Below, one piece after another: positions 3,709 through 42,939 of a stretch of DNA of 64,000 nucleotides (its first letter is position 1; the number at the start of each line of letters is the position of its first letter). Under the pieces are notes generated by a model. The model was not told the DNA's origin and ran no database searches. It saw only the letters and a list, made by a program, of their open reading frames with translations. Origin of the DNA: Thermoproteota archaeon (lineage in GTDB: Archaea > Thermoproteota > Methanomethylicia > Methanomethylicales > Methanomethylicaceae); NCBI GenBank assembly GCA_020832905.1, contig JAJHRG010000001.1, positions 564,940 through 628,939 of the forward strand. The letters are read 5' to 3'. The translations under genes and the position numbers were made by a program.

Positions 3709-4614
3709 CTCTATAGTAGCTTTTAAAGCTTTTTTAAAAGCTTCTTTTGCTTTTTCATTAGGAATAAAACTCAATTCTTTTCTTATTTTTTCATCATTTA
3801 ATATCCAATTACCAGTTAAGAAGCCAGGTCCTTTCCATTCTGAAGGATCTACTTCTATAATATTAGATTTTGATCCTGAAAGTTCAATAATCATTTCTAA
3901 AATTTCCTTCCAAGTAGTATTAAAACTTAAGATATTATATATCTTTCCAAAGGCATTTTTATTTAATAAAGCTAATTCAAATGCTTTTATTAAATCATTT
4001 ATATAAAGAATACTTCCTGCAGAACCTTTAGGTACATATAATACTTCATTTTTTAAAGCACTATCTATTATTTTTCTTAATGTCCCCCCTGGTATTCTTT
4101 CATCACTAAAAGCCCACCAAAATCTAAATATTGTAAATGGAAAACCTCTTTCTTTATAATATATTTCCATGGCTTTTTCTACTGCAAGTTTTGTAAGAGC
4201 ATGAGTTGGAGCTCTTGATTTTTCTACTAATAAAGGATGATCTTCTTTTATTGGAACAATAACAGGCTCTCCATAAATTACTGAGCTACTTGGAAATATT
4301 ATTTGCTTAACACCATACTGACAACATGCCTCAATAACATTTAAAAATCCAATAACATCAATTTTAAATCCATCTAGCATTTTTTCTGAAAATGACCATG
4401 CTGAATAGAATACAACATCACAACCATTTACTACATTTCTAACAGTATTTTCATCTTCTACTCCTCCAATTATGAATTTCATATTTGGATGTTCAAAGCC
4501 TTCTAATTCTCCTTTTGTTTTATCTAATACTATAACTTCATGATTTTTTTGAAGAAGTGCTTTTACTAGTCTACTTCCAACAAATCCTCCTCCACCAGTT
4601 ACTAAAATTCTCAT
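3691..4614 (-). CDS. NAD-dependent epimerase/dehydratase (extended SDR)
   Basis: N-terminal Rossmann motif MRILVTGGGGFVGSRL. 307 aa, typical of UDP-sugar epimerase/dehydratase family members. Confidence 0.85.
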   Translation of the reverse strand: MRILVTGGGGFVGSRLVKALLQKNHEVIVLDKTKGELEGFEHPNMKFIIGGVEDENTVRNVVNGCDVVFYSAWSFSEKMLDGFKIDVIGFLNVIEACCQYGVKQIIFPSSSVIYGEPVIVPIKEDHPLLVEKSRAPTHALTKLAVEKAMEIYYKERGFPFTIFRFWWAFSDERIPGGTLRKIIDSALKNEVLYVPKGSAGSILYINDLIKAFELALLNKNAFGKIYNILSFNTTWKEILEMIIELSGSKSNIIEVDPSEWKGPGFLTGNWILNDEKIRKELSFIPNEKAKEAFKKALKATIELRRSL

Positions 4615-4663
4615 AAATATAAATTTAAATTCTTAACTATTAAAATTTTAATAGGGAAATAAA

Positions 4664-6022
4664 TTGAAAATTTGGCAAGGAGTTGAAGTAGAATACTGTG
4701 TTCCATATATTAATAGAAAAAACTATGTTAATGAATTATTAGAATCACTAAGAAATTATAAAATGCCATTAAAAAATACATCTCCTTTTCTAATGAAAAA
4801 AGATGGAAAATATACACAATTTCTTATTAATGGTGGAAGAGCATATGGAGATATAAGCTTTACACCAGGTGTATATGATATTTTAGAAATAACAACTCCA
4901 GAATGTCCAAATCCATTTTATACTCTTGCATATGAAAAAGCAACAGAAGTTTATGCAAGAATAGCATCAGATGAATTTGAAAGAACATCAGGAATGAGAG
5001 TACATTGTTATAAAATAAGTGTAGTAAAATCTGAATATGAGTATACCACTAGAGGACTTCATGAAAGTTATTTAGTAGAAAGAAAAGCTTTTGAAAATAA
5101 AATTATGGAATTAATTCCTTATTTAGTTATAAGACAAATATTTACAGGAACTGGTGGATATTATTTTGGAAGATTTTTAATATCACCAAGACAAATGTTT
5201 ATAAAATCAGTAGTTGCTGAGAAAATATTTGGAAATTGGCCATTAATTGCAGAAAGAGATGAACCACATGCAGATCCTAAATACAAAAGATTGCAAATTA
5301 CAAATGGAGAAGGAGCAAGAACTGAATGGACAATATTTATGAGACAAGCAATAACATCATATATAATTAAAGCTATTGAACTTGGATTAATAAAAGAATT
5401 ACCAAGAATTAAAGATCCTATTGAAGCTGCAAAATTAATTGCTATATCTCCAGAAGGAGATTGGAGTTTAGAATTAGAAAATGGAAAAGAAATTAAAGCA
5501 TTAGAAATTCTTTCATATTATTTAGAAGGTATAGAAAAATTATTTATGAATGAAGAAATAGATGATTATGATAAATATGCATTAAAAGAATTTAAATTTG
5601 TATTAAATAAATTAGAAGAAGGAGATTTTGAATCATTAAAAAATAGAATAGAATGGATTGTAAAACTTGAAATTTTAGAAAATAATTTTAATAAATATTT
5701 TGAAGGAAATGGAAGCGAAGAAGAAAAAATTATTGCAAATAATCAATTTTGTGCAATAACAGATGGAACTTTTGAAAGAATACAAGAAGAAATGAACTTA
5801 ATTACATTATTAAAAGATGAAGATTTATCAAAAGCAGTTCTATTTCCACCAGAAAATTCTAGAGCATATGCAAGAATAAAAATTGCTCAAATTTTAAAAG
5901 ATAAATTAGATGATATTGGATGGTCTTATATTATTGTAAATAGTAATAGATATCATATGCTAGAATTAGATGGATGGAATGATGAAAAAATTTCAAAATT
6001 TTTAAATGAAATTATTTCTTAA
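4664..6022 (+). CDS. Pup-ligase/deamidase family protein (PafA-like paralog 1)
   Basis: 452 aa with a TTG start. Family blocks present: GVEVEY (GxExE[YF]), RAYGD, GLHESYLV (cf. PafA GCHENYLV), LIPYLVIRQIFTGTGG, ERDEPHADPKYKRLQITNGEG, KDPIEAAK and IEWIVK. Confidence 0.8.
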   Translation: MKIWQGVEVEYCVPYINRKNYVNELLESLRNYKMPLKNTSPFLMKKDGKYTQFLINGGRAYGDISFTPGVYDILEITTPECPNPFYTLAYEKATEVYARIASDEFERTSGMRVHCYKISVVKSEYEYTTRGLHESYLVERKAFENKIMELIPYLVIRQIFTGTGGYYFGRFLISPRQMFIKSVVAEKIFGNWPLIAERDEPHADPKYKRLQITNGEGARTEWTIFMRQAITSYIIKAIELGLIKELPRIKDPIEAAKLIAISPEGDWSLELENGKEIKALEILSYYLEGIEKLFMNEEIDDYDKYALKEFKFVLNKLEEGDFESLKNRIEWIVKLEILENNFNKYFEGNGSEEEKIIANNQFCAITDGTFERIQEEMNLITLLKDEDLSKAVLFPPENSRAYARIKIAQILKDKLDDIGWSYIIVNSNRYHMLELDGWNDEKISKFLNEIIS

Positions 6023-6093
6023 TTTATAACTCTATTTATAAGAAGTTTAAACATTTAAAAAAATTTTTATAATTTTAAGAATAATTTAATATT

Positions 6094-7665
6094 ATGAAAA
6101 TATTAAAAGAAATGGCAAGAGGTTGTGAATACGAATTTAGTGTAAATAGATATCCACCAATTCTTCCTGGTATTCAACTTTCAGATATTATAGGAAGAAC
6201 AATACTTGCATTAAAAAATTTAGGATTTATATCTAAAGTAATGTGGAGTGTAGAAGATGAAATTGGAAATTTAACTTATGAACGTGGTTTATTTGATTCT
6301 TGGTTATTTGCAGAAGGACCTTATGAAATTGCTTTTAATGGAATGAGAATATATGATGATGCTCAACATTTAGAATTTTCTACTCCAGTATTTAGAAGTC
6401 CAATTGATGCAGTAGTTTATGATAAAGTTGCTGAAAGATTAGCTTTTTTAGGAATAGAACAAATAAGAAAAACTCATGGAGAATTATATTGTTATAAAAC
6501 TAATAATAGTCTATTAAAAGGATCTTATGGTTATGAAGCAGTAGCATGGGGGACTCATGGATGTTATTGTGTTAGTAGAAGAATTTTTAATTTTGAAAAT
6601 TGGAAAAATGTAGAAAAAATTCTTATTCCCTTCATTATAAGTAGAATTCCATTAATTGGTAGTGGAGGAGTATTACCTATAAGAAATGAATTTTCATTTG
6701 AACCTCCAACAAGTTCAAGATTATGTGGTGATAAAATAATATATGTAATTTCACCAAGAGCAATTTATATAAAACAATTATCATCTATTGATACTACAGT
6801 AGATCGTGGATTTTTAAATCTAAGAGATGAACCACATGCTAATCCTAATAAGTATTGGAGATTACATGATATAAATTTTGAAGCAATAAGAAGTGATTTT
6901 CAAATATTTATTAGAGATGCATTAGAAGTTTTTACATTAAGAGCAATTGAAGAAGGATTATTACAAAATCCACCAATAATTAAAGATCCAATAGAAGCTA
7001 TAAGAAAAGTTTCAATGAATATAAATGAAATTGATCAATTTATTGAATTAGAAGGAAGTAATAAAGCAAGATTACTATCAGATATACTTTCATATTATAT
7101 TTCTGCAATTGAAAAACTAATAGAATTAAGAGGAGATAATGAAGACCATAAAGTTTTTAAGGTTATAGAAAGTGTAATTCAGAAACTAAAAGAAGGATTA
7201 TTTGAATATTTAAATGGAGCTATTGATTGGATTGCAAAAATGATGCTAATAGAAGAATATAATGCTAAAGATATGGATATGGCTATTATATGTAATCAAT
7301 ATGGATTATTAGATGAAAATACAGGTTTTTATGAAGGAAGAATAGAAAAAGGTGATACTTTATTTGATCCTGAATCTTCCTTAGCTTTTCTTGAAGAAGT
7401 ATTTCCTTTTGTAAAATCAATAAAAGAGAAAATAAAGTATGGTATGAATAATCCTCCTACAGATACTAGAGAATATTTAAGAACAAATATTTTAAAAGAA
7501 CATGAATCAGAAATAATAAAAATGAATTGGTGGAAAATTTACTTTAAAGGAGGTTTAATTACTTTAGATGAGCCATTAAGATATGGAAAAGAAGAAAGTG
7601 AAGAAATTTTAAAGATAAAAGACTTAAAAAAATTATCTGAAGTTATAAGAGGTGAAGCTAAATGA
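6094..7665 (+). CDS. Pup-ligase/deamidase family protein (longer, Dop-like paralog 2)
   Basis: 523 aa. Family blocks present: GCEYEF, RIYDDAQHLEFSTP, LIPFIISRIPLIGSGG, LRDEPHANPNKYWRLH, KDPIEAIRK and IDWIAKM. The H-E-N block is diverged (GTHGCYCV). It carries extra insertions and a longer C-terminus than paralog 1. Confidence 0.75.
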   Translation: MKILKEMARGCEYEFSVNRYPPILPGIQLSDIIGRTILALKNLGFISKVMWSVEDEIGNLTYERGLFDSWLFAEGPYEIAFNGMRIYDDAQHLEFSTPVFRSPIDAVVYDKVAERLAFLGIEQIRKTHGELYCYKTNNSLLKGSYGYEAVAWGTHGCYCVSRRIFNFENWKNVEKILIPFIISRIPLIGSGGVLPIRNEFSFEPPTSSRLCGDKIIYVISPRAIYIKQLSSIDTTVDRGFLNLRDEPHANPNKYWRLHDINFEAIRSDFQIFIRDALEVFTLRAIEEGLLQNPPIIKDPIEAIRKVSMNINEIDQFIELEGSNKARLLSDILSYYISAIEKLIELRGDNEDHKVFKVIESVIQKLKEGLFEYLNGAIDWIAKMMLIEEYNAKDMDMAIICNQYGLLDENTGFYEGRIEKGDTLFDPESSLAFLEEVFPFVKSIKEKIKYGMNNPPTDTREYLRTNILKEHESEIIKMNWWKIYFKGGLITLDEPLRYGKEESEEILKIKDLKKLSEVIRGEAK

Positions 7666-7757
7666 GTGATATTTTACCATCTTTTAAGAAAAAAGAAAAA
7701 GTAGATAAAAAGTTAAAAAAAGAACATGCTGAACTTATTGCTCCACCTGGTGAATAA
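7662..7757 (+). CDS. 31-aa Lys-rich peptide ending Gly-Glu; candidate Pup/UBact-like modifier
   Basis: Sequence MSDILPSFKKKEKVDKKLKKEHAELIAPPGE. The ATG overlaps the TGA of the upstream gene (ATGA). A GAGGTGA SD ends 6 nt upstream, the same motif and spacing as before other genes in the window. It is too short for the ORF track. Confidence 0.55.
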   Translation: MSDILPSFKKKEKVDKKLKKEHAELIAPPGE

Positions 7758-7762
7758 TAAAC

Positions 7763-7796
7763 TTTTTTAATTATTTTTTATAATTAAAAAATTTTT
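7763..7796 (+). terminator. oligo-T tracts flanking an AT hairpin downstream of the small ORF
   Basis: T6 run, then inverted repeat TTAATTAT-ttttt-ATAATTAA (7767-7787), then a T5 run. Archaeal termination typically uses oligo-T. Confidence 0.35.
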
Positions 7797-7893
7797 AATG
7801 AAATTATTTAATTAAGTCAATAATCATTATAAACATGTTTATAACTGATTAATTTTTATAGAAATATTTTTATAGCTTTTTAAAAAATTTAAA

Positions 7894-8193
7894 TTGGGGG
7901 TTCTGGTGCCAGAAATAATACTTCGTATAAAAACATCTGATATTAAAGGCAATATAGGTCTTCTAAATCCACAAGATTTATCAAAACTTGGTGCAAAGGA
8001 AGGAGATGAAATAGAATTGTATTCAACTTCAAGAGCATGGACTATAAAGACAAAATCTGATTCTTCAGTACCTATAGGAGAAGTAAGAGTAAGCACAGAC
8101 GTTCTGAGAAGACTTGATGTAGAAGATGGAAGTGAAGTAAGAGCTTATTGGGCTCCTCCAGTAGTAGAAGAAAAATATGAACCCCCACCATGA
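7894..8193 (+). CDS. stand-alone double-psi-beta-barrel-like protein (Cdc48/VAT N-domain or FwdD-like)
   Basis: 99 aa. The pattern ILRIK..D.....GLLNPQDLSKLGAKEGDEIEL....R.W......D..VP.GEVRVS.DVLRRLDVEDGSEVRA matches the Cdc48_N/VAT-N repeat signature. It has a Pro-rich tail. Its stop lies 9 nt before the OFOR gamma-delta gene. The start may be GTG at 7906. Confidence 0.5.
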   Translation: MGVLVPEIILRIKTSDIKGNIGLLNPQDLSKLGAKEGDEIELYSTSRAWTIKTKSDSSVPIGEVRVSTDVLRRLDVEDGSEVRAYWAPPVVEEKYEPPP

Positions 8194-8202
8194 GGTGAGA
8201 TT

Positions 8203-9264
8203 TTGGCTATATTTGCAGTTGAATTTGATGGAAGAGGTGTAACACAAACTGCATTAATGAGAGCTGCTAGTGAAATCATTTGTACTGCTGCAGATAAGGA
8301 TGGATTTCCATCAATTGGATATGAAAGATACGATGATGCTCCTGATAGAGTTGGTGTACCAATTAAAGGATTTTCAGTAATATCAAGAACAGCTCCCGCT
8401 TCATATGAAAAAGATTTAGAAGATGTTGCAGTTGATGTTGAAAAACTTAGTCCTCCAACACCAGATTACTCATATTATCAAGTATGCTATGATGAATTAG
8501 CACCTGAAGCAATGCTATATGAGCCAAGAGCTGTAGATGCTGTACTAGTACTAGATGATACTTTAGTAAAAGGAGAAGAACCATGGGCTTATATAGGAGT
8601 ACAACCAATACATGAGAAATTAAAAGATGGAGGAGCAATAATAGTAAATAGTAAAAGAGATCCAGAATATCTTTTAGAATTTATTCATCCAACAACTAAA
8701 AGATATAAATTAGCAGTTATTGATGCAGATTCTATGGATAAAATAATTATATTACCATTAATAGGTGCTATGCTAAAAGTAGCTCCTGGTATTGTTTCAT
8801 ATAGATCAGTTATTGCTACTGTAAAGGAAAGATATAAAGCTGAAGGAATAAAGAAAGCACAAGTAATAAAAGATGCTTATAATAAAGTAAGATGGATAGA
8901 AGTTCCACCTGCTAAAGAACCAATACAAATAAAGAGAAAGAGAAAATTCCTTGAAGAATTTCCAAAATGGCATGAAATGCCTATAGGTCTTGTAGTTCCT
9001 GCACCTCCAGTAAATGGTCCAAATCCACACTTCAAAACTGATACATTTAGGACATATAGACCTGTAACAGATACAAGTAAGTGTAATAAAGATGGATTAT
9101 GTTGGTTATATTGTCCTGATTCTGCTAGAAGTCCAGATCCAGAGACATTTTTTGCTGTAAATCTTGAATATTGTAAAGGTTGTGGTATTTGTGCTGAAGT
9201 TTGTCCTGTTAAAGCAATTAAAATGGTTAATGAATTAGATTTTAGAGGTGAGAAATTATGGTAA
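8203..9264 (+). CDS. 2-oxoacid:ferredoxin oxidoreductase, fused gamma-delta subunit
   Basis: 353 aa with a TTG start after a GAGGTGA SD. The C-terminal part has two 4Fe-4S motifs (CNKDGLCWLYCP, CKGCGICAEVCP) typical of the delta subunit. The N-terminal ~250 aa is gamma-sized. Confidence 0.75.
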   Translation: MAIFAVEFDGRGVTQTALMRAASEIICTAADKDGFPSIGYERYDDAPDRVGVPIKGFSVISRTAPASYEKDLEDVAVDVEKLSPPTPDYSYYQVCYDELAPEAMLYEPRAVDAVLVLDDTLVKGEEPWAYIGVQPIHEKLKDGGAIIVNSKRDPEYLLEFIHPTTKRYKLAVIDADSMDKIIILPLIGAMLKVAPGIVSYRSVIATVKERYKAEGIKKAQVIKDAYNKVRWIEVPPAKEPIQIKRKRKFLEEFPKWHEMPIGLVVPAPPVNGPNPHFKTDTFRTYRPVTDTSKCNKDGLCWLYCPDSARSPDPETFFAVNLEYCKGCGICAEVCPVKAIKMVNELDFRGEKLW

Positions 9265-13895: not shown

Positions 13896-15353
13896 GTGAT
13901 AATAATGATAAAAGAAGAATATAATGAAATTATCTCTGGAATTGTAGGAATATTGATAATTTCAGGTATTATAATGTTAATTCCAATTATTCCCTTAGTG
14001 GTATATAGTGAGTATGCTCAATTGCCTTTCTTTTTATTTTCCTCCATCATCTTATTAATAATAGGAGGATATTTCTATAGAAAATACCCCCTTCCTGAAG
14101 ATATTACAATGAAATCTGCAATTGTTATTGCTAGTATTGCTTGGCTTTTAATATCACTAATTGGAACAATACCATACTTAAGTATAGGTATGAATATTAT
14201 TGATGGATTTTTTGAATCAATGAGTGGATTTACTACAACTGGTATGACATTAATTAGTGTTTTGGAAATATGTCCAAGATCTATATTATTTTGGAGGAGC
14301 TTAAGTGAATGGATTGGAGGAATTGGAATAATCTTTCTTTTTACAATATTATTAAAAGGAAGTATAGGTACATGGAAATTATATAGAATTGAAGGAAGAG
14401 AAAAATTTACAATAAGTGTAAAAGAAAGTATAAGAAATATAATGATTATATATACAACTTTAACTATAGTTTGTACAATTTTATTATATTTAAGTGGATT
14501 AGATGTTTTTGATTCAATAAATCATGCAATGACAACCATTTCTACAGGAGGATTTTCTACAAAAACAGATAGTATAACTAACTTCAGTATCTTGACAAAA
14601 ATAATAATAATTATGTTTATGATAATTGGTGCAATTGATTTTGCATTAATTAATGAAATTATAAAACTTAAGATAAAAAAAGTAATAAGCGATCCTGAAT
14701 TCAAAGCCTTTATATTTATAATCATAATTAGTATTTTATTAGTTTACATATTGAATTCAAAGGAAATGAGCTTTAGCATAAATGAATTATTTAATACAAT
14801 ATCAATAGTAACTACAACTGGCTATACAAGTGGTGATATACTTTTATGGCCTAATTCCACTAAGGTTTTACTATTAATACTTATGACAATAGGTGGATGT
14901 GCAAATTCAACTGCAGGAGGAATAAAAGTATGGAAATTATTAATACTATTCAAACTTTTAAGAAGAGAATTAAAAAGACTATTGTTACCTCCTTCTATAA
15001 TAATGCCTATAAAGATAGGAGATAAAACATTTGATGATGAATATTTAATTAAAATATGTACTTTCTTCTTTAGCTATATAGTACTAATATTCATAATCTT
15101 CTTATTACTAAGTATTAATATTCCTGATACATTTGGAGCGTTATCATTAGCCATTTCTTCTATTAATAATATAGGACCTGCTTACTATCCTATTGATAAG
15201 CTTGATTTATTTTCAAAAATAATATTAATAATTAGTATGTGGATGGGTAGACTTGAATTATTTCCAGTAATGGCTTTTATTTTTGAATTCATTCCAGAAA
15301 CTTTTAAAAATATATTATCAAGAAGATTTAGAAAGGAGTACGAGTATACTTAA
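13896..15353 (+). CDS. trkH: Trk/Ktr-type K+ transporter membrane subunit
   Basis: 485 aa and polytopic. Repeated selectivity-filter-like MSGFTTTGM, STGGFST, TTTGYT and NIGP blocks. Confidence 0.82.
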   Translation: MIIMIKEEYNEIISGIVGILIISGIIMLIPIIPLVVYSEYAQLPFFLFSSIILLIIGGYFYRKYPLPEDITMKSAIVIASIAWLLISLIGTIPYLSIGMNIIDGFFESMSGFTTTGMTLISVLEICPRSILFWRSLSEWIGGIGIIFLFTILLKGSIGTWKLYRIEGREKFTISVKESIRNIMIIYTTLTIVCTILLYLSGLDVFDSINHAMTTISTGGFSTKTDSITNFSILTKIIIIMFMIIGAIDFALINEIIKLKIKKVISDPEFKAFIFIIIISILLVYILNSKEMSFSINELFNTISIVTTTGYTSGDILLWPNSTKVLLLILMTIGGCANSTAGGIKVWKLLILFKLLRRELKRLLLPPSIIMPIKIGDKTFDDEYLIKICTFFFSYIVLIFIIFLLLSINIPDTFGALSLAISSINNIGPAYYPIDKLDLFSKIILIISMWMGRLELFPVMAFIFEFIPETFKNILSRRFRKEYEYT

Positions 15354-16590
15354 AAATTTCACAATATTTTTCATTTAATTTTAAATTTCCTACTTGTATG
15401 AGAGAAATATCATCACTTACTGGTGTTATTATTTTCATTTTTCTTTCTTCATAATTTATTTCTGATATTATTCCAAGTCCTAAGAATTTTCCATTATCTT
15501 TATAAAGACCAACAATTATTCCTTTTTCAGAACCTTTCTTTATAGCAATTAATTCATCACAAATTTTTTCTTTATTTGTTATATTTGGTTCATCTTCAGT
15601 TACTAAAAATAAGAATTTTCCATTAGTTTCTCCATAAAGTATTTTTAAGCATAATTCTTTACTTAGTTTTTCTAATAATTCTTTTGATAATGGATTACCA
15701 TAAGTATAATAAGAACATATAATTTTTGTTGATTTTAAATCTATAATTCTTTCCTTACTATTAGCAAAATATTTACTATATGCATTTTCACGTTTTTCTT
15801 TTCTTTCTTCTCTACTTCTTATTCTTGATGCTGATGAAGATGTTATTCTTATTACATTTTCAAAATTTCTTATTATATGTTCTAATTCATTTCCTTTTTG
15901 AATTGCAATAATAAAATCAGGAGAAATTATTTGAATTAATGAGCATTTATATTCTCTTGCATATATACCATTAACCCATCCACATGTATTTATAATGATT
16001 ATATCAGCATTATTATTTAAAGCATTATCAACAAGCTTTTTAGCACTTACTATCATTTTCATTGGAGCATCAGATGGTGTAGTTGTTCCAATAAATATTG
16101 CATCAGTTAATGGAATTTTATCCATAGAAATAATTGTATTATTTAAAAAGCCATAACCAATAGTTGTTGGTAATGATATTTCAGCTTGTCCTGGATCTAA
16201 ATCAATAACAGCAACTTTCATTCCATACTGAAATGCTATATTTGCTAAATATACTGAAAAAGTTGTTTTACCACTATCTGTATCTCCTATTACCATAACC
16301 TTTATTGGAGGTTTACTTTTAATTATTTTTTCAACAGCATCTTTCCAGCATAAAGGTATAGGATTAGGGATTTCTTTTATACATGCATTACTTCCAAGAT
16401 TAATTTCAATAAGTGAATCTTCTAGTACTTCTACTGGTATAGATTTTCCTTTTGGTATTATTATTTCCTCTCCTAATGTAACAGATTTTCCTAAAGCTAA
16501 AATTTTTCCATTACGTAAGCATAAATATGCAGGACCATATACTACAAAAGAGGACATTTTTGTTAAGTTCATTTGCAACAAATAATACAC
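15328..16590 (-). CDS. Clp1/Grc3-like polynucleotide 5'-hydroxyl kinase (archaeal type)
   Basis: P-loop VMVIGDTDSGKTTF preceded by a beta-rich N-domain, with a Walker B-like IDLDPGQ. The start may be the internal MSSFVVYGP at 16557. Confidence 0.6.
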   Translation of the reverse strand: MYYLLQMNLTKMSSFVVYGPAYLCLRNGKILALGKSVTLGEEIIIPKGKSIPVEVLEDSLIEINLGSNACIKEIPNPIPLCWKDAVEKIIKSKPPIKVMVIGDTDSGKTTFSVYLANIAFQYGMKVAVIDLDPGQAEISLPTTIGYGFLNNTIISMDKIPLTDAIFIGTTTPSDAPMKMIVSAKKLVDNALNNNADIIIINTCGWVNGIYAREYKCSLIQIISPDFIIAIQKGNELEHIIRNFENVIRITSSSASRIRSREERKEKRENAYSKYFANSKERIIDLKSTKIICSYYTYGNPLSKELLEKLSKELCLKILYGETNGKFLFLVTEDEPNITNKEKICDELIAIKKGSEKGIIVGLYKDNGKFLGLGIISEINYEERKMKIITPVSDDISLIQVGNLKLNEKYCEIFKYTRTPF

Positions 16591-27768: not shown

Positions 27769-28578
27769 ATGAAAATCATTAACTTATTATTACTAAGTCT
27801 ATTATTTTCACTTATACTAGCTTATCCTATATTAGCTCAATCTAATAATATGTACATAAAACTTCAAAAATTTACAATTTATGATATTAATCGTGATTTT
27901 ATATACATAGAATATTTAGGAGAAGAAGATATTATAGTTTTAATTGTAAAATCAGATTCTAATTTAGATATAGTAAAACAAAGTATCGGTATTGGTTATG
28001 GTAGTATTACAATACATATTAAAAATACTTCATATAAATTAGGATCATGTATAATTGCTTTATTCTCTACAAAATCCTTTTTACTAAATATATCTATGAG
28101 AATGGGAGAAATACCACTACAAACTCAAACAATTTCTGTACCTGCTAATATTACATTACAAATGGAAATACCAATAGAATATGGTGGTTATCAACAGCCA
28201 ATATATACTATTACTAATGTTTCATATACTCCATATTTTCCAATATGGACTCTTTTAACATATGCTATAATATTACCAATGTTTATTATAACAGGATATT
28301 TAGATAAAAACTCATTGAAAATTATGAGAAAACGTTGGACACAATTAGATACATTTGCCATTATAATAAGATATGCTTTTTATGCTTTTTTAGTAATATT
28401 CATTATAGTAACTATTGAAATTGTAGTAGAATACATATTATCTAGACTTAATATTTATGCAATAAGTTTACATATAGGAGATTGGTTTATCTCATGTATT
28501 TTATTTTCTATATTTACTATAATATATGGAATAGGAAAATGGAGGGGAATATTTGAAAATGTTGATGGAGAAGAGTGA
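27769..28578 (+). CDS. signal-peptide plus C-terminal multi-TM membrane protein
   Basis: N-terminal signal-like MKIINLLLLSLLFSLILAYPILA, an extracytoplasmic ~130-aa domain, then 3-4 TM helices. Its 3' end overlaps the AAA-Lon gene by 26 nt. Confidence 0.6.
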   Translation: MKIINLLLLSLLFSLILAYPILAQSNNMYIKLQKFTIYDINRDFIYIEYLGEEDIIVLIVKSDSNLDIVKQSIGIGYGSITIHIKNTSYKLGSCIIALFSTKSFLLNISMRMGEIPLQTQTISVPANITLQMEIPIEYGGYQQPIYTITNVSYTPYFPIWTLLTYAIILPMFIITGYLDKNSLKIMRKRWTQLDTFAIIIRYAFYAFLVIFIIVTIEIVVEYILSRLNIYAISLHIGDWFISCILFSIFTIIYGIGKWRGIFENVDGEE

Positions 28579-31267
28579 AGATTATTGGTGGTGGATTAAA
28601 AGACCTATTTTAAGAAAATTATTATGTTTACCATTATATTTAGCTAATAGAGAATATAGAAGATGGAGAAATGCAAGATTAAATCCAAGAATTATTAAGA
28701 AAAAATTAGCAGAAATAGATAAAAAATTTCCAAAAAAGAAAGAAGATCTTATTGGAAGAGATAAAGAATATCAATTGATAATGAGTGCAATTGGTTATCA
28801 TGTTATAAGAGATCCTTCACTATTAAATATATTTAAGGGAGCACCTCCACCAAAATTCTTTATACTTAAGGGTACAACAGGTACTGGAAAAACATTACTT
28901 GCAGAAGTTTGTATAAGAGATGCTATAGAATATGGAATAAGTAAGGGAGTAAATGTACAACCAATAGTTGTTATGGGAAGTGATATATTTAATCCATTAT
29001 ATGGACAATCAGTTATTAATTTATCATATATATTTAGAAAAGCAAAGGATACTCCAAGTATAATATTCTTTGATGAATTTCAAAGCATAGGTATACGTGT
29101 AGAAAGACCAATGTATGGTGCAGATAGAGAAGATATGAGAGTACAAGATGCATTTATAGAGCATATTAATAAAATACTAAATACACCTCAAAGAACTATT
29201 GTTATTGCTGCTACAAATAAATTTGAAAGTATTAGAGAAGATATTAGAAGAAGAGCATATGTAATTGATTTAGATCAGAATATTACAAGAGAAATGCTTC
29301 TTGCAGTTCTTAAAGCTGAGTTAGAAAAATATGGATGGACACATTTATCACCTAATGAAGTTTTAACAGTATTAGAAAAAGCTGTAAGTACATATAGACA
29401 AACACAACTTACACCTTTTGATATAATTGATGCATGTAATAGAGTTAGAAGTAAAAAAATAGAACCTTTAAGAGAAAAGTTTTTCAAAAAGATGATATTT
29501 AGTAAAAAAACTACTTCTGATGATTTGAAGTTATTAGTAACAATAGATGATTTTAAGTTAGTTGCAAGAGAGTTAAGAGGATATACAGAACAAGAAAAAA
29601 GCGATGAAGTTATGGCTTCAGTATTAAGAATAAAACCAGCTGTTAGCTATAAAGATATTGGAGGACTTTTTGGAATAAAGGAAAAACTATTTAAAATAAT
29701 ATCTCTAAGTCTTTCTCCTGAATTAGCAAGTAAGTTAAACTGGGTTCCACCAAAAGGCTTTTTACTATGGGGAGAACCTGGTTGTGGAAAAACATATCTT
29801 TCAAAAGCAATTGCAAAAGAAAATAATGCAACATTCTTTTATGTTCCTGCAGCTCAACTTTTAATTAATGCAAAATGGGTTGGAGAACCTGAGAAAAATG
29901 TAAGAGATTTATTTGCACTTGCAAGAAGACATGCACCAAGTATAATATTTTTTGATGAATTTGATGTTATTGCTGGAAAAAGAAGAGGAGATCCTGTAAG
30001 TGATAGATTAACTGCACAAATATTAACAGAACTAGATGGTTTACAGCCATTAGAGAATGTAATAGTAATAGCAGCAACAAATAGATTAGATGCAATTGAT
30101 GAAGCAATAATTAATAGATTTGAACCATATGTAATAGAAATTCCCTTACCAAGAAATGATGCAGAACGTTTAGATATTATAAAGGTTCATTTAAGACATT
30201 ATATTGCTCATCTTCATCCTGAAGTTACTCCTGAGAAAGTATTAAATATACTAAAAAAACATAAAGTAGTTTCTCCAAGAGTAGTTAGTGAAATTATAAG
30301 AGAAGCAAATAGATTAAGATCACAAGAAGTTAATGCAGCAATAGAAATTACTAGAAATAAAGATAGATTAGCAGAAATTTACAATCTTTATAGAGAAGAA
30401 ATTGAAAGATTAAAAGAAGTTTTAGGTGCTTTAGATTATGAAGTACTAAAAGAAGTTAAACCAGAAACCTATAAAATAAGACTTTATCATTTTGAAAAAG
30501 CTGCTGAAGAACTTGAAAGTGAAATTGAAAAAGAAATAATGGATGCTCAGGAAAGTATGATTTATGAGAAACTTAATCCTGGTGTAGCATTAGGTCTTGC
30601 TACAGATCCTCAAGGTAGAAAAGGAGTAATACTAATAGTTGAATGTGCATCAAAACCAAATGGTAGTGGTAAAATTACAGTAACAGGAGCAGCAAAAACT
30701 GCAGTTATAGGTCCTGGTACAACAGTTGAAGATGTAAGTGTTATTGAAAGTGCTACTAATGTCATAGAGTTTATTAAGAGATATATCTATGAAAAACTAG
30801 GAATAGATATTTCAAATTATGATTTTACATTTCAAGTTATAAGTCCACTTGAGGGAGCACCAGGAATGGGAGTAAGTGGTCCAAGTCTTGGTCTTGCTTT
30901 TAGTGTAGCTGCTATATCTGAACTTGCAGGAATAGAAGGAAGAAAAGATGTAGTTATGAGTGGAAAAGGTGATATAAAGGGAAATGTTGGTCCTGTAGGA
31001 GGAATGAGTTGGCGTGGATCAGGAAAAATTTTAGCTGCAATTCAAACAAAAAGAATAAAGATTAAAAAATTTATAATTCCAAAGTGGAATTATGAGCATT
31101 CTCCTGATGAAATAAATATACTTAAAGAAGAAGGTATTGAAGTTATACCTGTTGAAAAGCAAGTAGAAGCATGGCTTAATGTATTCTCAATAACTGAAGA
31201 AGAATTACTAAATAGAATTGCTAAAAATATTGAATTAAAGTCTAATATTAAAGCAATATTAAGGTAA
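28553..31267 (+). CDS. tandem AAA+ ATPase fused to a C-terminal Lon (S16) protease domain
   Basis: TTG start after GGAGGGG. AAA-1 has GTTGTGKT / IIFFDEF. AAA-2 has GEPGCGKT / IIFFDEFD with classical-clade sensor blocks. Lon_C has GVALGLA, ITVTGAA, GVSGPSLGLA (catalytic Ser) and GSGKILAA (catalytic Lys). Confidence 0.8.
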   Translation: MKMLMEKSEDYWWWIKRPILRKLLCLPLYLANREYRRWRNARLNPRIIKKKLAEIDKKFPKKKEDLIGRDKEYQLIMSAIGYHVIRDPSLLNIFKGAPPPKFFILKGTTGTGKTLLAEVCIRDAIEYGISKGVNVQPIVVMGSDIFNPLYGQSVINLSYIFRKAKDTPSIIFFDEFQSIGIRVERPMYGADREDMRVQDAFIEHINKILNTPQRTIVIAATNKFESIREDIRRRAYVIDLDQNITREMLLAVLKAELEKYGWTHLSPNEVLTVLEKAVSTYRQTQLTPFDIIDACNRVRSKKIEPLREKFFKKMIFSKKTTSDDLKLLVTIDDFKLVARELRGYTEQEKSDEVMASVLRIKPAVSYKDIGGLFGIKEKLFKIISLSLSPELASKLNWVPPKGFLLWGEPGCGKTYLSKAIAKENNATFFYVPAAQLLINAKWVGEPEKNVRDLFALARRHAPSIIFFDEFDVIAGKRRGDPVSDRLTAQILTELDGLQPLENVIVIAATNRLDAIDEAIINRFEPYVIEIPLPRNDAERLDIIKVHLRHYIAHLHPEVTPEKVLNILKKHKVVSPRVVSEIIREANRLRSQEVNAAIEITRNKDRLAEIYNLYREEIERLKEVLGALDYEVLKEVKPETYKIRLYHFEKAAEELESEIEKEIMDAQESMIYEKLNPGVALGLATDPQGRKGVILIVECASKPNGSGKITVTGAAKTAVIGPGTTVEDVSVIESATNVIEFIKRYIYEKLGIDISNYDFTFQVISPLEGAPGMGVSGPSLGLAFSVAAISELAGIEGRKDVVMSGKGDIKGNVGPVGGMSWRGSGKILAAIQTKRIKIKKFIIPKWNYEHSPDEINILKEEGIEVIPVEKQVEAWLNVFSITEEELLNRIAKNIELKSNIKAILR

Positions 31268-41913: not shown

Positions 41914-42939
41914 TCAAGTCTGTATTATTTGTTCTATGCTTAGGTTTAAAACTATCTCAGCTATATCACTTGAATAATCGATAATCCTTCTCAGATTTTC
42001 TAAAATAAGTGCTAATTCTGCTGATTGTTTTTTATTTCTTTTGATTATATCTCTAACTATTTTCATTCCTTTTGTTATTGTTTCTCTAATTTTTTGTATA
42101 TTTTCTTCTGCTAATTGATAATCTCTCTTAAAGAAGGCTTCTACTGAAGTTTCAAAAACTGATTTTGAAAAAGAACTTATTTTCATTATTTCATCTAATA
42201 TTGATTTATCAAGTTTAGAATTTAAAGTAGTTGTAATTTCAGCTATTCTAACAGAATGATCAGCTATTCTTTCTACGAATTTTACCAACACTCTATAAGC
42301 TAAACATTCTCTTGGATTAGAAAGTCCAATTTCTTGCATTATCTTACTATTTTGAATAGCAACCTTTAATTGACGAATTATATAAAAGCTTAAACGATCA
42401 ACTTCATCATCTAATTCTATTACATTATTAGCAAGATCTTTATCTAAATTTATTAATGCTTTTATAGCATTTTCATGAAGTGAAGAAGTTATTAAACACA
42501 TACGCCTTAAAGTACTACTAATTGAAAGTTCAGTAGAGTCTACTAAGACCTTTAAAATCATTTCATTGGGCATATCAGATATTATTTCCACTCCTATAAG
42601 CTTTCTTTTAGTTAATCCCCTTATGGTATTTTTATGTGAAGGAGTAATTTGTCCATCAATAGCCATAATCCTAATAGAATCATAACCATTAAGGTATACT
42701 GAAATTATTGCTCTTATTATCTTTTCCAAAGGATAGTCCTTTGATATTTTAATAATTGCCTCTCTAAGATTTACCTTTGGCTTAATTAAATCCTTAGGAG
42801 TTATAATAAGTGATGAGCCTTCTTGTGTTATTACAAGTTGATCACCAACTTTAAGACCCATATCTTTAATCCATTTTTTTGGTAGAGAAATTATAAATGA
42901 TGATCTACCAGTAAGTTGGATTTTTCTAATTTCTTCCAT
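41914..42939 (-). CDS. phosphate-uptake regulator, AbrB/SpoVT domain fused to PhoU repeats
   Basis: N-terminal LTGRSSFIISLPKKWIKDMGLKVGDQL (AbrB-type) and two PhoU-like repeats (ERIADH). It is divergent from pstS. Confidence 0.85.
   Translation of the reverse strand: MEEIRKIQLTGRSSFIISLPKKWIKDMGLKVGDQLVITQEGSSLIITPKDLIKPKVNLREAIIKISKDYPLEKIIRAIISVYLNGYDSIRIMAIDGQITPSHKNTIRGLTKRKLIGVEIISDMPNEMILKVLVDSTELSISSTLRRMCLITSSLHENAIKALINLDKDLANNVIELDDEVDRLSFYIIRQLKVAIQNSKIMQEIGLSNPRECLAYRVLVKFVERIADHSVRIAEITTTLNSKLDKSILDEIMKISSFSKSVFETSVEAFFKRDYQLAEENIQKIRETITKGMKIVRDIIKRNKKQSAELALILENLRRIIDYSSDIAEIVLNLSIEQIIQT

Follow-up and report, generated by a model that had tools for sequence, protein, structure and literature searches.

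To our knowledge, archaea are thought to tag proteins with beta-grasp modifiers only, among which the SAMPs are proteins of ~70-90 residues with a Gly-Gly end whose alpha-carboxylate is adenylated by an E1 enzyme. In the LysW/LysX system of Thermus and archaea, LysX and ArgX belong to the ATP-grasp enzymes, and the gene of LysW, a zinc-ribbon protein, is part of a biosynthetic operon. The UBact system of Nitrospirae and other Gram-negative phyla is, for its part, said to have been described by Lehmann et al. in 2017. As for pupylation, the literature searched treats it as a bacterial and in essence actinobacterial invention and lists bacterial phyla only (Iyer et al. 2008, PMC2588565; Barandun et al. 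2012, PMC3511204; Hecht et al. 2020, PMC7947786), and a 2025 review brings in archaea for their proteasomes only, without naming any homologue of pupylation genes among them (PMC12288473). The present analysis deals with a 64,000-nucleotide stretch of a Methanomethylicia genome (assembly GCA_020832905.1, contig JAJHRG010000001.1, positions 564,940 to 628,939; hereafter the window, all positions being counted from its first letter), in which two adjacent genes for enzymes of the Pup_ligase family, p1 and p2, are followed by a gene for a 31-residue peptide ending in Gly-Glu. We consider it fairly probable that this peptide is a C-terminal-Glu modifier handled by p1 and p2, the three genes thereby forming a pupylation-like module of a new type.

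The original prediction, a short note made from the DNA alone, had held that tagging of the Pup or UBact type was not described for archaea. This stands in so far as a literature search on Pup-type systems in archaea, whose coverage left out most subscription journals, found no describing paper; the enzymes themselves, however, already carry automatic database labels in archaeal metagenome-assembled genomes (MAGs), such as 'proteasome accessory factor PafA2 family protein [Candidatus Methanomethylicia archaeon]' or 'Pup--protein ligase [ANME-1 cluster archaeon GoMg2]'. What is supported at the sequence level is a chemistry and an architecture of the Pup type, for which an archaeal host has enzyme clades and a modifier family of its own.

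The two enzymes of the cassette

The cassette comprises the following features.

4615..4663, + strand: A/T-rich intergenic region between a divergent epimerase gene and p1; its TTTAAA-type boxes, ~30 nucleotides 5' of the p1 TTG, are a putative archaeal promoter
4664..6022, + strand: p1, Pup_ligase-family enzyme and candidate ligase, TTG start, 452 residues
6094..7665, + strand: p2, Pup_ligase-family enzyme, Dop-leaning, candidate deamidase or de-tagging enzyme, 523 residues
7649..7655, + strand: GAGGTGA element resembling a Shine-Dalgarno (SD) sequence, 6 nucleotides 5' of the peptide ATG and within the 3' end of p2
7662..7757, + strand: peptide, candidate modifier, MSDILPSFKKKEKVDKKLKKEHAELIAPPGE, 31 residues, start overlapping the p2 stop (ATGA)
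7758..7800, + strand: second stop codon and T-runs (TAAACTTTTTTAATTATTTTTT) after the peptide open reading frame (ORF)

The paralogs lie where the original prediction had placed them (452 residues at 4664-6022, 523 residues at 6094-7665), and the motifs that it quoted are all read in their translations, namely GVEVEY and GCEYEF, RAYGD and RIYDD, GLHESYLV, LIPYLVIRQ and LIPFIISRI, KDPIEA, IEWIV and IDWIA, together with the two blocks resembling RDEPHAD..Y.RLH (ERDEPHADPKYKRLQ and LRDEPHANPNKYWRLH). Their membership in Pup_ligase (PF03136) is firm, as comparison with the Pfam hidden Markov model (HMM) gives 203 bits for p1 (E=1e-59, profile positions 47-440 of 441) and 184 bits for p2 (E=6e-54, profile positions 72-439), exceeding the cut-off of 25 bits by ~160-180 bits. 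With the NCBIfam models, p1 reaches 157 bits for Dop (TIGR03688) and 145 bits for PafA (TIGR03686), and p2 reaches 176 and 121 bits, respectively, all of these scores being below the equivalog cut-offs of 492 (Dop) and 551 (PafA).

At the structural level, AlphaFold2 models of p1 and p2 reach a mean predicted local distance difference test (pLDDT) of 92.9 and 92.4 and predicted template-modelling (TM) scores of 0.93-0.94, and show a glutamine-synthetase-like beta-sheet cradle followed by the C-terminal domain that is specific to pupylation enzymes. In full-length Foldseek comparisons, the two models match Dop at TM 0.76-0.84 and PafA-Pup at 0.70-0.82, against 0.41-0.48 for YbdK/GCS2 proteins; the matches include, for p1, Dop 4b0r (0.84) and PafA-Pup 4bjr (0.82) and, for p2, Dop 7oxy (0.76). 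For Dop of A. cellulolyticus (AcelDop), the residues listed as binding Mg or, in the case of D94, as the catalytic Asp are E8, E10, Y92, D94, E99, H155 and H241 (PMC8599861). The residues aligned to them are E8, E10, Y61, D63, E75, H133 and H202 in p1, according to an alignment of its orthologues, and E12, E14, Y87, D89, E94, H155 and H248 in p2, where they are invariant in 20 aligned sequences. Besides, p1 has an H133-E134 pair, and some of its distant relatives have the last Mg-ligand His or the catalytic Asp replaced.

Several features distinguish the two paralogs from each other. The alpha-loop TT..R motif is conserved in PafA and Dop alike, while the Dop-loop insert, the lack of an insertion past the catalytic Asp and an S-[AT]-P motif are specific to Dop (PMC7947786). 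At the Dop-loop position, p1 has 51 residues, which is a PafA-like length without an insert of Dop-loop size, whereas p2 has 73 residues from E14 to Y87, compared to 82 in AcelDop. The 22-residue extra segment of p2 does not resemble the Dop-loop in sequence, and some p2 orthologues are without it. The spacing after the catalytic Asp of p2 is Dop-like, with no insertion (YDDAQHLEFSTP), and p2 also has the STP motif and keeps TT..R. In phmmer comparisons with PDB sequences, p2 scores 106 bits with Dop and 48 bits with PafA, whereas p1 reaches 70 bits with PafA and is thus relatively nearer to PafA than p2 is.

The ancestry of the pair was assessed with distance-based, unrooted neighbour-joining (NJ) trees of 411-430 trimmed columns and 100 bootstraps, in which the references were Dop and PafA pairs from twelve bacterial loci among the scan matches listed. 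The support values read as follows.

p1 sequences monophyletic: 100/100
p2 sequences monophyletic: 100/100
p1 and p2 together, against Dop and PafA together: 100/100
p1 with PafA: 0/100
p2 with Dop: 0/100

The likeness to the actinobacterial two-paralog architecture drawn by the original prediction therefore stands for layout, family and fold, but the pair is not PafA plus Dop by orthology. More precisely, p1 and p2, which share ~26% identity with PafA and Dop, belong to the Pup_ligase family and fall apart from PafA, from Dop and from the enzymes encoded next to UBact; the latter join Dop in the tree (65/100), sharing 39% identity with it but only 24% with p1/p2. The two archaeal enzymes would thus not be orthologues of PafA and Dop, and their separate, deeper clade with its own duplication looks independent, while the grouping of p1 with p2 may also be due to long-branch attraction. 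Each of the two clades takes in sequences from ANME-1, Methanosarcinales-labelled, Bathyarchaeia and Tectomicrobia sources, and the duplication is therefore older than the spread over these lineages. A HMMER scan of 1.84 billion cluster representatives returned 2,289 family members at E<=1e-3, of which only 41 reached E<=1e-30 for p1, which indicates that the p1/p2-type clade is small. Among the matches listed from a scan of genome contigs with the p2 alignment, Actinomycetota Dop was dominant, one Tectomicrobia locus (L008) was relevant and no archaeal representative was present.

The peptide and its relatives

The ATGA overlap, the GAGGTGA element and the 31-codon ORF ending Gly-Glu that the original prediction described are all read in the DNA. 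The peptide consists of an N-terminal LPSFKK motif, a Lys-rich middle and a C-terminal K-K-E-H-x-E-[LV]-[IV]-A-P-P-G-E module, has an isoelectric point (pI) of 9.2, contains no Cys and matches none of the Pfam and NCBIfam family models. Its ending is rare in the window: only 2 of 7,919 stop-terminated segments end in G-[EQ], the peptide ORF is the single one of 125 ATG-initiated ORFs of 25-45 residues to do so, and [AVI][AP][PSA]G[EQ]-stop occurs once in the six frames of the 64 kb. Given this rarity, the Gly-Glu of the peptide is not a chance product of AT-rich sequence. In addition, over the last 16 codons, the window differs from the syntenic Methanomethyliaceae locus (L001) at 12 codons, nine of the differences being synonymous and three non-synonymous. 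Judged by its sequence, the 31-codon ORF is a real gene. Oligo-T tracts terminate archaeal transcription, and the T-runs at 7758..7800 probably mark the end of a p1-p2-peptide transcription unit.

Related loci (L numbers) were searched by a mechanical scan for ORFs bearing the C-terminal module of the peptide. Such an ORF adjoins the pair in each of the eight loci whose sequence allowed a full reading (L001, L002, L004, L006, L089, L090, L091 and L094), in which p2 identity falls from ~68% to ~37%; it lies 3' of p2 in seven of them and 5' of p1 in L006. The conservation of a short ORF ending in G-[EQ] next to the pair thus extends to distant relatives. The sources and peptides of the loci with a short peptide are given below.

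L001, Methanomethyliaceae: peptide MSEIVLPSFKRKERTDKRLKKEHSEVIAPPGE
L002, Bathyarchaeia: peptide end ...KKRKVKKEHTQVVAPSGE
L004, no source label: peptide end ...KKKKIREIHSEVVAPSGE
L089, no source label: peptide end ...RKIHKQVVSPPGE
L090, Bathyarchaeota cluster: peptide end ...IKKEHSRVVAPPGE
L091, Methanomethylicota: peptide end ...VKEEHKEVVAPPGE
L006, no source label, 4480-4572 (GCA_041642995.1): peptide end ...KLKPEHAVVIAAPGQ, Gly-Gln end

As a control, a scan for G[EQ]-stop recovered canonical Pup 3' of Dop in at least ~60 actinobacterial loci. In seven Actinomycetota MAG loci (L019, L020, L022, L027, L035, L039 and L061, at ~3800-5650), Pup appeared as a 29-residue C-terminal fragment (MD[DE]ILDEID...GG[EQ]), which is probably an artefact of trimming to the first Met in the presence of alternative GTG/TTG starts rather than a short Pup.

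A profile search with a five-sequence alignment headed by the 41-residue Bathyarchaeia peptide added ten called homologues (P0028-P0037). In all 19 homologues recovered, the terminal residue is Glu or Gln after Gly, and the ending is Gly-Gln in two peptides, that of L006 (P0035) and P0037, the latter on a 754-bp contig. The shared C-terminal module consists of a basic run followed by x-H-x-x-[VLI]-[VI]-A-P-[PS]-G-E, and the ends found are P-P-G-E, P-S-G-E, T-S-G-E and A-P-G-Q, so that only the final G-[EQ] is common to Pup. The short peptides have 27-41 residues, a pI of 9.2-11.2 and 8-14 Lys/Arg, including conserved lysines in LPSFKK and before the C-terminal module. SD-like GGAGG/GAGGTGA elements also precede the peptide ORF in L001, L002 and L004. 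Most gene callers missed this ORF, and the called copies carry no functional name. In L089, a 134-residue DUF3795 gene (6371-6775) stands between p1 and p2, the peptide being still 3' of p2.

The cassette is also present in MAGs labelled Bathyarchaeia, Methanosarcinales and ANME-1, and takes an extended form in the last of these.

L092 3337-8638, L094 1703-7083 and L095 2084-7464: extended ANME-1 cassette with AAA ATPase, p1, p2 and 91-residue protein
L088 2305-5916, Methanosarcinales-labelled: 538-residue ATPase (ends GMYY), p1 and the start of p2; the contig ends before the modifier position

In ANME-1, the ATPase has 542 residues (ending GMHY), p1 585, p2 523 and the modifier-like protein 91. 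The ATPases of ANME-1 and L088 possess an N-terminal coiled coil and align end to end to the Mpa/ARC model TIGR03689 at 165-173 bits, which is below its cut-off. The GQYL end of Mpa and the HbYX motif of PAN are C-terminal proteasome-docking motifs, which the GMHY and GMYY ends presumably recall. As for the 91-residue protein, its N-terminal 60 residues are strongly acidic, it ends in ...KKIMPYEIYATSGE, and its last 18 residues (KKVNKKIMPYEIYATSGE) comprise a basic run and an A-x-S-G-E module, this C-terminal module being all that it has in common with the 31-residue peptide. These comparisons suggest a modular modifier, in which the C-terminal module would be recognised by the enzymes while the N-terminal part would be lineage-specific. 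The N-terminal parts, LPSFKK in TACK lineages and an acidic helix in ANME-1, would possibly be read by downstream machinery. The Mpa-like ATPase linked to the pair in ANME-1 and in the Methanosarcinales-labelled lineage suggests that an unfoldase or proteasome is the destination there. The extended ANME-1 cassette is the strongest hint of such a link.

Proposed chemistry, rival explanations and significance

The analysis establishes family membership, fold and catalytic residues of the enzymes, their separate clade, the conservation and coding nature of the peptide and the archaeal host; the peptide as the substrate, protein lysines as the acceptors, the roles of the paralogs and the fate of tagged proteins are inferred. 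The C-terminal module of the peptide would dock in the groove of the Pup_ligase fold, thereby bringing the side chain of the terminal Glu to the Mg/ATP site. Ligation would fall to one paralog, more likely p1, with ATP serving to phosphorylate the gamma-carboxylate and an amine, in all likelihood a lysine side chain of a protein, receiving the peptide; the other paralog, more likely p2, would hydrolyse the same amide and so remove the tag. A terminal Glu or Gln after Gly is the one feature required by Pup chemistry, and it is kept in the archaeal peptides. The presence of Gln-ending peptides in the same two-enzyme layout indicates that one paralog would act as an amidase, as in mycobacteria; in these lineages, the hydrolysing paralog would deamidate the peptide to its ligation-competent Glu form. 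Regarding the division of labour, p2 appears Dop-like because of its Dop-favouring scores, the absence of an insertion after the catalytic Asp, its STP and TT..R motifs, its extra segment and its position before the modifier gene. For p1, the PafA-like length at the Dop-loop position, near-equal PafA and Dop scores and relative proximity to PafA make it the better ligase candidate.

A number of observations weigh against this reading, and they concern both the enzymes and the peptide. In the PDB comparisons, p1 and p2 both score nearer to Dop than to PafA, and the assignment of ligation to p1 and hydrolysis to p2 is a tentative one. The TT..R motif is absent from p1 in the alignments, the DEPHAD His is lost from p1 in P0106-P0108 (one of them from a Bathyarchaeia locus) and in the Methanosarcinales-labelled P0112, and p2 lacks the Glu of the HEN motif. 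The peptide is basic (pI 9-11), in contrast to Pup, which is acidic with a pI near 4 and has ~60-70 residues, and being Lys-rich it could itself be the acceptor. The homology to Pup or UBact looked for since the original prediction was not detectable: five archaeal-type peptides gave no match at E<=10 to the Pup HMMs PF05639 and TIGR03687, which recovered Pup from L009 at E=1e-19 and 3e-19, and the archaeal peptides and the ANME-1 protein gave none at E<=10 to the UBact model NF033388, whose sensitivity is shown by the 81 bits of a UBact-like control sequence against a cut-off of 35. Besides, the surroundings of the cassette contain no Mpa/ARC, PAN or proteasome gene, either in the window or in the loci of Methanomethylicia and Bathyarchaeia. 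Finally, nearly all of the sequences come from MAGs.

One rival explanation takes the cassette for bacterial DNA that mis-assembly or mis-binning has brought into archaeal genomes, in which case nothing archaeal would be involved. In its favour, a MAG labelled Candidatus Tectomicrobia (L008) contains close relatives of the pair, one cluster member bears the label Spirochaetes bacterium DG_61, and the transporter neighbours in L006 look bacterial. Against this, with a G+C content of 25-27% the cassette matches the remainder of the window (27% overall), which also encodes a Trm14_Arch tRNA methyltransferase equivalog (348 bits, cut-off 280), a Clp1 P-loop kinase and a geranylgeranyl reductase family protein; the flanks are syntenic gene for gene with the 161-kb contig of a Methanomethyliaceae MAG (L001), whose order is CitMHS transporter, Nramp-type transporter, Zn-ribbon ORF, divergent epimerase, p1, p2, 95-99-residue ORF and OFOR; and in Bathyarchaeia, Methanosarcinales and ANME-1 loci the pair lies beside archaeal Clp1 or AbrB-PhoU. 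In addition, every named protein that clusters with p2 at 90% bears a Verstraetearchaeota or Methanomethylicia label, the contigs reaching up to 650 kb, and the L006 and Tectomicrobia sequences nest within archaeal ones in the NJ trees. A mis-binned origin is thus hardly credible. The host of the cassette is archaeal, as Trm14_Arch and the archaeal neighbours, the matching G+C, the L001 synteny and the p2-cluster labels all indicate, and the archaeal context claimed by the original prediction was upheld when the taxonomic markers were checked. L006, with its bacterial-looking transporters, groups with the Tectomicrobia MAG, and the system may have crossed between domains.

The other alternatives accept the genes as archaeal and differ as to what the enzymes do. 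According to one of them, the peptide would be a carrier or scaffold for small-molecule chemistry, to whose Glu gamma-carboxylate one paralog would load a small amine, such as an amino acid or a polyamine, for later unloading by the other, in a LysW-like or peptide-templated biosynthesis. The superfamily does ligate small amines (glutamine synthetase, GCS2/YbdK) and provides, with YbdK-type proteins, the next-best fold matches; moreover, the window holds no linked reader or unfoldase gene and the peptide is far shorter than Pup. This explanation is nevertheless unlikely in view of neighbours that differ between loci without conserved biosynthetic genes, of a complete Dop/PafA architecture that includes the C-terminal domain (TM 0.76-0.84, compared to 0.41-0.48 for GCS2), and of the ANME-1 Mpa-like unfoldase and acidic modifier extension, which point to macromolecular targets. 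A peptide with 8-14 Lys/Arg, some of the lysines being conserved, might also be the precursor of a ribosomal natural product, in which a Glu-Lys isopeptide within or between copies would yield a macrolactam or an oligomer, and PafA is known to pupylate itself and Pup (PMC4783102). Since no protease, exporter or immunity gene is conserved nearby, since the number and spacing of Lys vary between lineages, and since a 91-residue acidic homologue beside an AAA unfoldase gene, as in ANME-1, is unlike a precursor of this kind, we regard this as decidedly unlikely. Finally, the invariant terminal G-[EQ], found in 2 of 7,919 segments, is hard to explain without Glu/Gln chemistry, the C-terminus is kept even where the peptide gene has moved (5' of p1 in L006), and the layout parallels the dop-pup and UBact loci. 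It therefore seems very improbable that the enzymes act on unrelated substrates, such as gamma-glutamyl small molecules, and that the short ORF is a co-transcribed regulator or structural partner, even though the link between peptide and active site is an indirect one and the peptide matches no family model.

Returning to the reading of the peptide as a modifier, a broader proposal can be formulated, which we put forward tentatively and with more doubt than confidence: several archaeal lineages (Methanomethylicia, Bathyarchaeia, ANME-1/Methanophagales and Methanosarcinales) would possess an ancient, independently evolved system of the pupylation type, with its own ligase/amidase pair and a family of modifiers of 27-91 residues ending in [AS]-x-[PS]-G-[EQ], which at least in ANME-1 would feed an Mpa-like unfoldase and the proteasome. 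If true, this would be a third archaeal protein-conjugation system beside SAMP/Urm1 and the ubiquitin-like one, and a new post-translational modification for archaeal biology, including methane-cycling groups (ANME-1, Methanomethylicia) and Bathyarchaeia. Pup-type tagging would then be a cross-domain invention rather than an actinobacterial one, and its origin, as well as its coupling to proteasomes of archaeal type, would be reopened. A minimal 31-residue tag with a compact ligase might, in addition, serve proximity labelling in the way of PafA/Pup. Since PafA with PupE yields a 'pupylome' in E. coli (PMC7947786), the archaeal hypothesis is directly testable.

Neighbouring genes and comparison with known systems

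The neighbours named by the original prediction (Clp1-like kinase, geranylgeranyl reductase, AbrB-PhoU, AOR and OFOR) are all found in the window, and Rfam and tRNA scans of its whole length gave no match. The genes of interest outside the cassette, with their counterparts in relatives, are listed here.

15328-16590 and 41914-42939, - strand: genes of the Clp1-type kinase / AbrB-PhoU type, 8-35 kb from the pair
L002 2203-3489, L088 943-2166 and L092 2183-3223: genes of the Clp1-type kinase / AbrB-PhoU type in relatives, next to the pair
7894-8193, + strand: 99-residue ORF with weak double-psi-barrel-type matches (Molydop_binding, CDC48_N) below cut-offs; precedes the OFOR genes
8203-9264, + strand: 353-residue ORF in which OFOR subunits of the gamma and delta type look fused; L001 has a separate gene for each
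28553-31267, + strand: 904-residue ORF with two classical AAA domains (CDC48/PAN-like, ~214 bits) and a C-terminal Lon protease domain

Clp1-type kinase or AbrB-PhoU genes adjoin the Pup_ligase pair in Bathyarchaeia, Methanosarcinales-labelled and ANME-1 loci, a proximity that may be the remnant of an old archaeal synteny or reflect a weak functional association. The 99-residue ORF type recurs with OFOR genes in L001 and L002. This ORF, the OFOR genes and the divergent epimerase, which turn up in several loci, were rejected as members of the cassette, their orientation and presence being variable and all of them being absent in L006 and L089-L091; in the Methanomethylicia and Bathyarchaeia neighbourhoods, p1-p2-peptide alone is conserved. 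The 904-residue protein, whose AAA-AAA-Lon architecture is unlike the usual archaeal LonB, was also dismissed as a partner, its resemblance to the ANME-1 Mpa-like ATPase being a generic AAA-domain match (29% identity) and its gene lying ~21 kb away. With respect to base composition, syntenic relatives of the window (G+C 27%) range from 42% (L001) to 53% (L002), and since protein identity to L001 is still ~68%, the lineage of the window must have undergone a strong AT shift.

Among the systems to which the cassette can be compared, LysW/LysX shares the ATP-dependent ligation of the gamma-carboxylate of a C-terminal Glu to an amine and its later release. It differs by its enzymes, those of the cassette having the Pup_ligase fold, by the Cys-free nature of the peptide and by the lack of linked biosynthetic genes around p1 and p2. 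The SAMP/Urm1 system is likewise archaeal, and in both cases a small gene-encoded modifier would go onto lysines via its C-terminus. Chemistry and proteins are otherwise entirely different. Unlike SAMPs, which depend on the E1-like UbaA, the peptide has too few residues to form a beta-grasp fold and matches no ThiS, MoaD or ubiquitin Pfam model, and p1 and p2 have the glutamine-synthetase fold rather than that of an E1 and are expected to activate the side chain of Glu. The resemblance to UBact is closer, as both have a short Arg/Lys-rich modifier that ends in [ST]-G-[EQ], occurs outside Actinobacteria and is encoded directly 3' of a gene of the Pup_ligase family, such a gene lying just 5' of UBact in each of the six real UBact loci retrieved with a UBact-like query. 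The archaeal peptides, however, lack the LLKRMRRVDP..A.RYRQR core of these loci.

Finally, the comparison with actinobacterial pupylation brings out both differences and likenesses. On the one hand, p1 and p2 form their own NJ clade far below the PafA and Dop equivalog cut-offs, the short archaeal modifier has 27-41 residues and ends in P-[PS]-G-[EQ] whereas Pup ends in K-G-G-[EQ], the host is archaeal, and the cassette of the window is without linked Mpa or proteasome genes. On the other hand, both systems possess two paralogs of the same Pfam family, with the same fold, Mg ligands and catalytic Asp, and a small, probably disordered modifier encoded directly 3' of the more Dop-like paralog. 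In both, the last two residues of the modifier are Gly-Glu or, in some lineages, Gly-Gln, the latter implying deamidation, and the operon-like cluster of the ANME-1 relatives includes a gene for a coiled-coil AAA ATPase that resembles Mpa.

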